A stretch of DNA of 63,052 nt from contig CAZRCV010000001.1 of the NCBI GenBank assembly GCA_964598745.1, positions 1 to 63,052 of the forward strand, in the 5' to 3' direction. This document shows, piece after piece, positions 47,331-49,565 of the stretch (position 1 is its first letter; every line of letters begins with the position of its first letter). Position numbers and translations under genes: made by a program. This stretch comes from an uncultured Methanosarcinales archaeon (GTDB lineage Archaea > Nanobdellota > Nanobdellia > Woesearchaeales > GW2011-AR9). The notes under the pieces were generated by a model that searched no databases, was not told the origin of the DNA, and saw only the letters and a list, made by a program, of their open reading frames with translations.

Positions 47331-47915
47331 TTATATGCTAACCTCCTTTTTTAAGATATAAATGCCTTCTTTAAGGTCAATTTTGCCTTCATCTATCAGC
47401 TGATCTAAAAAATCTTCTAATTTGTCTTTGTTAACACCAGTCAAAAGGCTTATCTGCTCCGAAGTTAAGTTCTGGCGGCTGAGGATTAAAGTAACATAGT
47501 TTTTCAACAAAGAACCCAAACTGCGTGTTAAGAATTGATTTTCAGCTTGAAATTGTTTAGCTACCATGTCTACCTGATGTAGTTTTGCTTGTAAATCGCT
47601 TAAAAACTCAGAAGCATTGCTATCATTGAACTTAACTTCAGTAGGAGAAATTATTTCAATCATGGAGGGCATATAGTTAAAACAAAAATCTATCAGATGC
47701 TTTAGAGAAGGCGTTTTCATTTCCAATTCAGCAAAAGTAGCCCACATCTCACTATTCGGCTGTTGTTCTGCCGGCATAAGCTGCTGCGTCGTTATCAAAA
47801 AATGCTTATCCTGTTCTAAATCCTTAATGTAACCTTTTAATGCTTCCTCTACATACAGCCTAGGTTTGCCCAAAACCTCAATAATACTGCGGAAAGCTAT
47901 TTCCTGCTCCATCAA
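47331..47915 (-). CDS. Hypothetical protein with a C-terminal winged-helix-like domain, coupled to scpB
   Basis: The stop is 1 nt before the scpB ATG. The C-terminus LTSEQISLLTGVNKDKLEDFLDQLIDEGKIDLKEGIYILK looks like a wHTH. Canonical ScpA N-terminal motifs were not recognised. Confidence 0.45.
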   Translation of the reverse strand: MMEQEIAFRSIIEVLGKPRLYVEEALKGYIKDLEQDKHFLITTQQLMPAEQQPNSEMWATFAELEMKTPSLKHLIDFCFNYMPSMIEIISPTEVKFNDSNASEFLSDLQAKLHQVDMVAKQFQAENQFLTRSLGSLLKNYVTLILSRQNLTSEQISLLTGVNKDKLEDFLDQLIDEGKIDLKEGIYILKKEVSI

Positions 47916-48143
47916 ATTAAGTCTAGTAGTGCTGGTTTTTAAGCCTATCGATCATCTTTCTTTAAAATTAATACCCTTGCTGTTAAGCTTACAGGAGCCA
48001 CTACAATGTAAGAAATCAGTTTTTTGATTTTTTCATCCCTGGAATATAGGTTGTTAAAATAAATTACTGCACGTTAAACTATTACTTTACTATTTTATAA
48101 TAATAAATAAAGTTTTTAAACCGTGTTACCCTTGATAAAAAAT

Positions 48144-48620
48144 ATGGGCTGGTTATTCAAAAAGAAAAAAGTAATTCCGAAGGTACCATTTCCTGAAACT
48201 ATTCCTAGCAGTTATGGAACTCTAAGGTTTCCAGAAAAGTTAAAGGAGCGGATAATTGAACCTGAAGACATTCAAAGTGCTGCCGGGCTAACGGAAGAAT
48301 CGTCTGAGCCTGCAGGCCAGGACTTAGATCTAGACGAAAATAACCGTAATATCGGCGCGCAAGAAGAACTGCCACCCTTGCCAGAAGCGCCAGCTGTTAT
48401 TACACGAAGCGAACCATTGTATGTTAAAAAAGATGTTTATCAAAGGATATTAGGAGAAATTGGAAACTTGAAGGACGATTTATTGGGGTTAAGTGAAACT
48501 AACGGAGTTCTAGAAAATTCAGAGTATAATGAAGAAAGTAACTTTGAAAAGTTGCGTAAAGCGATGAAAAATATCCATGATCGTTTACTGCAAGTGGACA
48601 AAGTATTATTCAAATCGTAA
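48144..48620 (+). CDS. Coiled-coil protein, paralogue 1 (N-terminal amphipathic basic segment, acidic/Pro linker)
   Basis: The ATG at 48144 (MGWLFKKKKV) is preferred over the GTG at 48123. The C-terminal module PLYVKKDVYQRILGEIGNLKDDL..LRKAMKNIHDRLLQVDKVL is shared with the next ORF. Confidence 0.45.
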   Translation: MGWLFKKKKVIPKVPFPETIPSSYGTLRFPEKLKERIIEPEDIQSAAGLTEESSEPAGQDLDLDENNRNIGAQEELPPLPEAPAVITRSEPLYVKKDVYQRILGEIGNLKDDLLGLSETNGVLENSEYNEESNFEKLRKAMKNIHDRLLQVDKVLFKS

Positions 48621-48631
48621 GGTGATTTCAT

Positions 48632-48859
48632 ATGGAAAGGATGCCGGTTTTTATAAAGGTGGATGATTATGAGGCTGTTCTTAGCTTGGTCAAAATGGTA
48701 CGCAAAAAATTAGATGAGGCTAAAGAAACTATCCTAAAAGTCAATGATCTAAAAAATGAAGAAGATCACCAATTAGAAACTTGGCAGAATTCCTTAGCTG
48801 AAATTGAGAAGAAAGTTGATTTCATAGATCATTCCCTTAGTGAGCCTGAAGAATTTTGA
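48632..48859 (+). CDS. Coiled-coil protein, paralogue 2 (75 aa, module only)
   Basis: AGGTGAT SD 5 nt upstream. PVFIKVDDYEAVLSLVKMVRKKL..WQNSLAEIEKKVDFIDHSL aligns with the C-terminus of ORF 48144..48620. Confidence 0.5.
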   Translation: MERMPVFIKVDDYEAVLSLVKMVRKKLDEAKETILKVNDLKNEEDHQLETWQNSLAEIEKKVDFIDHSLSEPEEF

Positions 48860-49362
48860 AAAGGAGTTCGAAATTGAGCCATAAAAAAACTAAGCATAAG
48901 CCTAGCAGCAGGAAGAGTGCTCCCAAAAATCTCCTTTCTGAACGAGCACCAGAGTATATGATTCAAATTAATGACCCTAAGATGCTGCGAAAAGACATCC
49001 TGGAATCGCTTCGCGAGGTTATTATTTTTATGCAAAGTTATGAAAAGTTCAGAAAAATACAAGAAGAGAAAATATCTTTGTTCTCTTCTTTGAAAACTAG
49101 TGTAAAGGAATTGAATTCTTTAATAGATAATAAGCTGCGAAGTTATCTTCCTAAAGGAAAGTTAAGGCCAGTAATGGACAACAGGCCAGAAGCAGAATCC
49201 AGTACTGAAATAGCCAAAGAGCAGGAAATCCCTCCAGCTAAGAAGGTAATTAAGCCAGAACCAAAGAAAGAGCCAGAAGAAGAGTACAAACCAAGAGATA
49301 CCTTAGAAGAATTAGAAACACAGCTCAGTGATATAGAAGCACAGTTGAAACGAATGGATTAA
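48856..49362 (+). CDS. Coiled-coil protein, paralogue 3 (basic N-terminus, Pro/Lys/Glu-rich tail)
   Basis: The TTG start overlaps the upstream stop (TTGA). An alternative TTG at 48874 is preceded by AAGGAG. The central helical module is a looser match to the two upstream ORFs. Confidence 0.45.
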   Translation: MKRSSKLSHKKTKHKPSSRKSAPKNLLSERAPEYMIQINDPKMLRKDILESLREVIIFMQSYEKFRKIQEEKISLFSSLKTSVKELNSLIDNKLRSYLPKGKLRPVMDNRPEAESSTEIAKEQEIPPAKKVIKPEPKKEPEEEYKPRDTLEELETQLSDIEAQLKRMD

Positions 49363-49386: not shown

Positions 49387-49409
49387 TAGCTTTTTTTAAA
49401 CTGTCTAAA

Positions 49410-49565
49410 GCGGACGTGCCGGAGTGGTCAAACGGGATAGCTTGTTTGGCAATAATGCTAAACGAATCCAAACTCAAGTCCTAGAAGTGAGACTAACGAT
49501 CCTAACGTGCAAAGGAGTCATCTATTGGCTTAGTGCCTACGCAGGTTCGAACCCTGCCGTCCGCA
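49410..49565 (+). tRNA. tRNA-Leu(CAA), class II, with two predicted introns (about 30/31 and 37/38)
   Basis: Hand-folded. Acceptor GCGGACG/CGTCCGC plus A73. D-arm CCG-GAGTGGTCAAA-CGG with G13.A22. Long variable arm TGGCTTAGTGCCTAC. T-arm GCAGG-TTCGAAC-CCTGC. The only CU-NNN-R loop is CTCAAG (49473-49478). Model: stem ATAG[49441-49471]A / TCTAT, with a second intron at 49479-49519. Mature length 84 nt. Boundaries are uncertain. Confidence 0.6.

Follow-up and report, generated by a model that had tools for sequence, protein, structure and literature searches.

ZipA, a tether of bacterial FtsZ, joins a membrane anchor, through a charged, P/Q-rich flexible tether, to a small C-terminal domain that binds the terminal helix of its partner. 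In Haloferax, FtsZ1 and FtsZ2 have different anchors. CdpC (HVO_0399, DUF7093), the FtsZ1 membrane anchor of Halobacteria, is composed of an N-terminal amphipathic membrane helix, a long, fast-evolving disordered linker and a conserved C-terminal domain which binds FtsZ1 directly and with high affinity (10.64898/2026.07.16.738847). Here we examine three small adjacent genes, the first of which encodes a protein with a putative anchor, a tether and a small domain in the same layout, on 63,052 nt of DNA from a Woesearchaeales archaeon deposited as an uncultured Methanosarcinales archaeon (CAZRCV010000001.1 in assembly GCA_964598745.1; this whole stretch is called the window below).

The three open reading frames (ORF1, ORF2 and ORF3), called on the window, lie on the forward strand at 48144-48620, 48632-48859 and 48856/48874-49362. 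ORF1 and ORF2 are separated by 11 nt and ORF3 overlaps ORF2 if TTG 48856 serves as its start, in agreement with the tightly spaced or overlapping trio described in an earlier note on this DNA. With a little better than even confidence, we read the three genes as subunits of one peripheral-membrane complex specific to Nanoarchaeota (Woesearchaeota, Pacearchaeota and relatives). A peripheral-membrane tether is proposed because a hydrophobic, polybasic peptide and a disordered arm of variable length are combined with a small helical domain that has a co-encoded free paralog and a basic partner. Membrane binding, complex formation and the stoichiometry of the trio are what we infer from this arrangement.

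ORF1 (158 aa; 48144..48620, +) is the candidate anchor subunit: orthologs and AlphaFold2 (AF2) delimit an N-terminal hydrophobic/polybasic peptide, an acidic, Pro-rich disordered linker and, at the C terminus, a hairpin. AF2 was run on monomers, for ORF1 from a 61-sequence alignment. The putative membrane-targeting peptide MGWLFKKKKV (residues 1-10; 48144..48173, +), which is so called on account of its conservation and would bind the membrane, is the most conserved part of ORF1 outside the hairpin. M1, W3, F5, K8 and K9 are at least 90% conserved among 61 orthologs, and the peptide recurs class-wide in forms such as MGWLFGKKK, MGLFSRKKK, MGIFDAFKKKK and MWPFKKKK. The linker (residues 11-88; 48174..48407, +; net charge -9) measures about 60-105 residues within the family, and the whole protein reaches up to 412 residues in other families. 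AF2 predicts this segment as disordered, and it carries short family-specific conserved motifs (VPKVPFP, LRFP and IEP..VK.A.G). Predicted local distance difference test (pLDDT) values were 50-70 at residues 1-90 and 85-94 at residues 91-156; residues 1-95 were mostly unstructured, with a short helix at 40-46.

The hairpin module of ORF1 (residues 89-158; 48408..48617, +), recognised by AF2 and by paralogy, consists of the strand-like lead-in PLYVKKDVY, a helix at 96-125, the turn SEYNEE and a helix at 131-156. Thus the basic N-terminal segment and acidic/Pro-rich linker that had been pointed out earlier were found again, as an MGWLFKKKKV start and a disordered linker leading to a small folded domain. 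The long coiled coil expected for the module was not borne out, since AF2 models it as two helices, each of about 26-30 residues, folded into a helical hairpin. None of the three proteins has a transmembrane segment (ORF1 reaches a maximum Kyte-Doolittle 19-residue (KD19) value of 0.29) and none contains a cysteine. Their net charges are complementary: -7 for ORF1, -8 for ORF2 and +8 for ORF3.

ORF2 (75 aa; 48632..48859, +) is the hairpin alone, a bare module as had been described. Pairwise BLASTP among ORF1, ORF2 and ORF3 of the window gave nothing significant; BLASTP is blind to the relation between ORF1 and ORF2, hence profile methods were needed. With hhalign, the ORF1 and ORF2 ortholog alignments matched with a probability of 87.7% (E 3.4e-6, 44 columns), pairing SEPLYVKKDVYQRILGEI...SEYNEE of ORF1 with RMPVFIKVDDYEAVLSLV...KNEEDH of ORF2. 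Of the genome's 3973 ORFs, ORF2 was the second-best match to a hidden Markov model (HMM) built from ORF1 orthologs alone (E 5.8e-5, covering the full module), and a search of the genome with the module profile found ORF2 at E 1e-44. Similarly, in other Woesearchaeales families a profile made from ORF2 alone matched the last 70 residues encoded by the upstream ORF1-like gene (E 1e-13 to 1e-19). These profiles establish ORF2 and the C-terminal domain of ORF1 as true paralogs. They have in common a module signature, namely a P-x-F-V-K-[IV]-[DE]-x-Y lead-in, a helix, an (N/Q)E(E/D) turn and a second helix ending in D..LF.

For ORF3 the outcome was different. Compared with the ORF1 or ORF2 family alignments by hhalign, it gave non-significant probabilities of 0.2-1.9%, and broader alignments yielded a single signal, in which the C-terminal helix of ORF3 aligned with hairpin helix 2 over 21 columns (probability 17.5%, E 1.4e-3). 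This similarity is suggestive, at a level well within reach of coiled-coil composition. Of the three paralogs of one module that the earlier note had proposed, the ORF1 C-terminal domain and ORF2 are thus confirmed as a pair, while ORF3, by the same alignments, is not shown to be a third copy and appears rather as a co-evolving partner of two paralogs.

From TTG 48874, ORF3 (162 aa; 48874..49362, +) comprises a basic N-terminal tail of charge +9, the strand-like segment PEYMIQI, a long helix, a disordered linker rich in K, E and P, and a C-terminal helix that is conserved; AF2 accordingly gave one 57-residue helix, a disordered linker and a terminal helix. The long helix (residues 41-97 in the 168-aa numbering; 48976..49146, +) was predicted with pLDDT 90-97 and ends in the conserved LPKGKL. 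The C-terminal amphipathic helix LEELETQLSDIEAQLKRM (49300..49356, +; AF2 helix 149-167, pLDDT about 90) follows the family consensus L..LE.(E/Q)L..IE..L..(I/L), conserved in all orders examined. R45, L49, E50, I56, M59, Q60, Q69, K72, L79, P99 and G101 are invariant.

To establish the distribution of the genes, each GTDB species was represented by one genome in a pattern scan; this returned 80 loci, all from Woesearchaeota/Nanoarchaeota metagenome-assembled genomes, some of them mislabelled 'uncultured Methanosarcinales'. ORF1-, ORF2- and ORF3-like genes were adjacent and in the same order in 80/80 loci, ORF3 being found in 79 and the 80th locus being cut, with median intergenic gaps of 2 nt and 3 nt. 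Compared with the proteins of the window, ORF2 was 63-89% identical, ORF1 33-64% and ORF3 38-66%; in the same loci, the values were 69-86% for GyrA, 59-87% for PCNA and about 60% for RNase J and ScpB. A 75-residue protein conserved like gyrase in fast-evolving DPANN genomes must therefore be under strong constraint. A narrow ORF2 profile matched the hairpin module in 214 of 251 sampled genomes, all within the Nanoarchaeota phylum. Among 20 first-pass negatives retested with a broad module profile (A4), 13 gave a clear and one a marginal match; all eight negatives that belong to other orders were among those recovered. This brings the module to at least 227/251 genomes, at least about 90% of the sample. 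The search of archaeal genomes with a module profile that had been suggested earlier, run here within the phylum, thus points to near-universality.

The unit has a simpler form outside Woesearchaeales. In the three genomes and one metagenome contig inspected, it comprises two genes, an anchor-hairpin gene and an ORF3-like gene. The first encodes 150-230 residues that run from an N-terminal peptide (MGLFSRKKK, MMGLFQKKSK or MWPFKKKK) through a Pro-rich linker to the hairpin; the second has the strand lead-in, long helix, LPK motif, basic linker and L..LE.EL..IE.KL..L C-terminal helix. Since other orders keep the two-gene unit, the anchor and its ORF3 partner would form the ancestral pair. In a maximum-likelihood tree of the module, ORF2 sequences formed one group (support 87/78, 88% of bootstrap trees), single-copy forms were placed among ORF1-type sequences and the ORF1 C-terminal domain of the window's family lay on a long, fully supported branch. 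Because the non-Woesearchaeales units inspected hold two genes only, the simplest history would be that ORF2 arose from one duplication of the hairpin in Woesearchaeales, after which the free copy was highly constrained and the tethered copy diverged.

The earlier description of the family as uncharacterised also held. Neither the proteins nor the whole alignments of ORF1-3 had an above-threshold match in Pfam, NCBIfam, PHROGs, PADLOC or PDB. The sub-threshold matches (Med9, Laminin_II, NPV_P10, MtrG, FlaC_arch and ATG17) were discarded as generic coiled-coil noise. The best PDB profile matches, to designed coiled coils, tubulin cofactor A and Gfh1, reached E 0.013-0.18 and were not significant. 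When 1.84 billion representatives were scanned with HMMER, 1298 proteins matched at E<=1e-3, and the best 150 of these were all ORF2-like, about 75 residues long and unnamed. Named homologs were all Woesearchaeota/Nanoarchaeota 'hypothetical protein', apart from one labelled 'Binatia', probably from a mis-binned contig. Three apparent fusions (P0187, P0182 and P0134) look like assembly chimeras and are uninformative as domain fusions.

A simple model of the trio would involve ORF1 as the anchor, with its MGWLFKKKK peptide in the cytoplasmic leaflet and the roughly 80-residue acidic, Pro-rich arm keeping the hairpin off the membrane. Together with the soluble paralog ORF2, the hairpin would form a bundle, probably of four helices, and the conserved P-x-F-V-K-I-D-x-Y lead-in strands would probably pair. 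Basic ORF3 would join acidic ORF1 and ORF2 via its strand-like lead-in and 57-residue helix, while its flexible linker would present the C-terminal amphipathic helix, which could either fold back onto the bundle or recruit a client. Most likely, the trio would act on the inner side of the membrane as a scaffold or adaptor comparable to SepF, ZipA and CdpC. A divisome or envelope client is our first guess, and a tentative one that we expect to be wrong more often than right.

Several points weigh against a peripheral-membrane complex. Formation of a complex is argued from operon coupling and co-conservation alone. The N-terminal peptide is short (about 9 residues) and could instead be a protein-docking motif. 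At the operon loci no linkage to ftsZ, sepF or any membrane machinery was found. In Foldseek searches against PDB, ORF1 had no match at E<=0.001 and ORF3 no match at all; without a significant match, the fold gives no functional hint.

A second protein with a similar start bears on the docking alternative. A 105-aa protein encoded elsewhere in the same genome (C8:27756-28073, +, locus L114) starts with MGWFSRKKEKE and continues through a Pro-rich linker to a single amphipathic helix at its C terminus, DLELINSKLDTLKVLLYSIDRRLENLEKA. Its gene overlaps the start of one for a signal-peptidase-II-like membrane protein and is present in 29/31 family genomes. From its sequence, the product may be a further membrane-tethered helix protein. 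As a second conserved protein starts with MGWFSRKK, the peptide looks like a reusable targeting device, which agrees better with membrane binding than with a private docking motif.

Compared with the systems in whose manner the trio may act, the likeness is one of layout. SepF, the peripheral, cytoplasmic protein that anchors FtsZ to the membrane in archaea and Gram-positive bacteria, joins a membrane-targeting peptide at its N terminus through a flexible linker to a small oligomerising domain, a layout that the putative targeting peptide, predicted linker and hairpin of ORF1 would match. However, the SepF core is alpha/beta whereas ORF1 and ORF2 carry helical hairpins, without sequence or fold relation, and it forms a homodimer or polymer where three co-encoded subunits are found here. 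The genome has a genuine SepF elsewhere (C2:72067-72471), which starts MKMKDFFLQLKEKFIK and matches PF04472 at C2:72217-72423 with 38.8 bits; the same model found no match in ORF1-3 at E<=1. The earlier note had likened ORF1 to SepF in layout only, claiming no homology, and the conserved peptide and AF2-disordered linker favour that analogy. ZipA has a transmembrane helix and an alpha/beta FtsZ-binding domain, and Pfam scans of the trio revealed no homology to it. With CdpC the trio has in common the three-part layout and a fast-evolving sequence with conserved architecture, but CdpC is a single protein, not a three-gene unit. Moreover, both CdpC domains are CPXCG-type zinc fingers and are indispensable (10.64898/2026.07.16.738847), whereas ORF1-3 contain no cysteine. 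Since CdpC depends on these two zinc fingers, the trio is not a member of its family, although by analogy it may work like it.

This likeness leads to the rival in which the trio is an anchor or organiser of the FtsZ ring, tethering one FtsZ paralog or its SepF/PRC-barrel partners; made of helical hairpins, it would be equivalent in function to CdpC or SepF. In favour, a putative membrane peptide, a disordered linker and a small, presumably binding domain follow one another as they do in SepF, ZipA and CdpC, and near-universal presence and high ORF2 conservation fit a core cell-biology role. FtsZ was found in 13/13 genomes of the relatives sample and in 25/25 further genomes, usually in two copies, and SepF in 12/13 relatives. 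FtsZ1 anchors of the CdpC type that bear a linker have not been described beyond Halobacteria, the relatives reported from elsewhere being distant multi-zinc-ribbon proteins without a linker (10.64898/2026.07.16.738847); those in Nanobdellota could, however, already fill the role (10.64898/2026.07.16.738847). In about 106 loci, the 3-5 kb next to the operon held neither ftsZ nor sepF, so that the proposed check of co-occurrence failed to lend support, and as FtsZ occurs in every genome tested, phyletic profiling cannot discriminate. We regard an FtsZ-ring anchor as unlikely. Still less probable, in our estimate, is the more specific proposal that the operon is a Nanoarchaeota-specific anchor or organiser of a cytoskeletal ring, most plausibly of one FtsZ, and so a third independent solution beside SepF and the zinc-finger CdpC, which would comprise a tethered hairpin, its free paralog and a long-helix partner that docks its own C-terminal helix into the bundle. 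The genome itself encodes two FtsZ paralogs on other contigs (C2:12105-13193 and C17:9432-10553), which end in the near-identical peptides ...SRELGIELV and ...ESELGIEFVN.

A role as a membrane-chromosome tether, with the ORF3 basic tail or linker binding DNA, ORF1 binding the membrane and SMC-ScpAB, gyrase or the replication machinery as partner, is suggested by the neighbouring genes. In the window, the operon is divergent from scpA-like, scpB and gyrA genes and lies 5′ of RNase J and PCNA; the scpB or winged helix-turn-helix (wHTH) gene is near in 58-60/80 family loci and in several other Woesearchaeales families. Lysine-rich low-complexity ORF3 segments occur in all lineages, and the N-terminal tail has a charge of +9 in the window. 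Yet the synteny is order-specific, the non-Woesearchaeales loci examined having TFE-alpha/M50 peptidase and alanyl-tRNA synthetase (AlaRS) genes next to the unit, and a variable surface-protein gene separates the trio from the scpA-like gene in locus L013, with a comparable gap in most loci. Furthermore, the trio has no recognisable DNA-binding domain, and the position of the basic segment is not conserved, being the N-terminal tail in the window and the inter-helix linker elsewhere. We consider this tether improbable. Even further from what we would expect is an ESCRT-III/PspA-like remodelling system spread over three genes, with MGLF as alpha-0, the hairpins as alpha-1/2 and the ORF3 C-terminal helix as a MIM1-like motif for an MIT-domain ATPase. 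The trio does resemble ESCRT-III, PspA and Vipp1 in its MG(L/I)F-type, putatively membrane-inserting start, helical hairpin core and C-terminal amphipathic helix after a linker; such a start recalls alpha-0 of PspA/Vipp1 and CHMP3, and I-E-x-K-L-x-x-L of the ORF3 helix loosely fits the MIM1 motif L-x-x-R-L-x-x-L. Against this, profile searches gave no match, the trio lacking a Snf7 or PspA match in Pfam, and linker position and helix lengths differ: alpha-0 abuts alpha-1 in ESCRT-III while 80-300 residues of linker intervene here, and the hairpin helices are shorter than ESCRT-III alpha-1/2. The idea was rejected because neither Snf7 (PF03357) nor an MIT domain was detected above cut-off in 13 genomes (this one and 12 relatives).

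The neighbourhood itself was followed across orders. As had been described, the operon of the window is transcribed divergently from the genes for a 194-aa wHTH protein, scpB (PF04079, 4e-30) and gyrA; it lies 5′ of an intron-containing tRNA, RNase J and PCNA. The scpB/gyrA synteny, with scpB or the wHTH gene in the fetched flank of the loci counted above, is limited to Woesearchaeales. In the four loci examined from other orders, a TFE-alpha/M50/AlaRS setting replaces this scpB/gyrA and RNase J/PCNA setting, and the unit stands between TFE-alpha/M50 peptidase and AlaRS in 3/4 non-Woesearchaeales loci (L098, L099 and L128). L098 and L128 show the contiguous order M50-type peptidase, TFE-alpha (opposite strand), two-gene unit and AlaRS, and L099 keeps the M50/TFE-alpha side. 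In the fourth (L100), other genes intervene: about 1 kb separates AlaRS from the ORF3-like end, and about 1.7 kb separates M50/TFE-alpha from the opposite end. Since neighbours differ across orders, the neighbourhood appears as slowly rearranging housekeeping synteny and not as a functional signature. The functional hint that the earlier note had drawn from the gyrA-scpB neighbourhood is therefore not retained, the synteny being order-specific and interrupted in L013.

The interrupting gene (L013:2449-4329, -) stands between wHTH/scpB and the trio; its product is a large and variable surface protein that has an LTD domain and is anchored by a transmembrane segment at its C terminus. A comparable gap of ~2 kb occurs at this position in most relatives, whereas that of the window is only about 230 bp and holds no insert. 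The 194-aa protein (47331-47915, -) is encoded directly 5′ of scpB, its stop lying 1 nt before the scpB start. It shows a C-terminal winged-helix signal (weak TrmB, PCI and ANAPC2 matches) and is next to scpB in 60/80 loci; no ScpA match was found in Pfam. By sequence, it may be a very divergent kleisin. On the other side of the operon, at 49410-49565, we observed a class II tRNA gene (GCGGACG...GGTTCGAACCCTGCCGTCCGCA) interrupted by an intervening sequence and missed by ARAGORN.

Signals around the three genes were read from the sequence. An AT-rich, TATA-like stretch ttttataataataaataaa (48093..48111, +), 33-51 nt 5′ of the ORF1 ATG, is a putative archaeal promoter. A T7 run at 49391..49397 (+), 29 nt past the ORF3 stop, is a likely oligo-T terminator and would mark the operon end. 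For ORF1, a longer start at GTG 48123 is unused by relatives, orthologs beginning with MGWLF in 60+ loci. A Shine-Dalgarno-like GGTGA precedes the ORF2 ATG by 7 nt. Three candidate starts were considered for ORF3: TTG 48856 (168 aa), which overlaps the ORF2 stop; TTG 48874, located 14 nt past the ORF2 stop and 7 nt after AAGGAG; and ATG 48958 (134 aa), which corresponds to the public gene call P0433. We favour TTG 48874 because of this ribosome-binding site and because relatives start with M-x-K-K-K. The 134-aa call is probably too short, since in 69 relatives no stop codon interrupts the frame between the ORF2 stop and the conserved PEYM, though the sequence there is very poorly conserved. 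The tight gene spacing suggests translational coupling, with which it is consistent.

Nanoarchaeota, with Woesearchaeota and Pacearchaeota, count among the archaea that are most abundant and least understood, and few have been cultivated; to our knowledge, almost nothing has been learned about their cell biology. The locus described here is an undescribed and strongly conserved unit of three genes, ancestrally two, which is near-universal in Nanoarchaeota and named in no database. Its conservation and near-universality mark it as core machinery, presumably at the membrane. The proteins are small and soluble, so that biochemical tests are feasible. If the proposed reading is true, the trio would extend the few membrane tethers known so far by a new fold and, whether as a ring anchor or as another scaffold, would show how archaea with reduced genomes organise their division or envelope.

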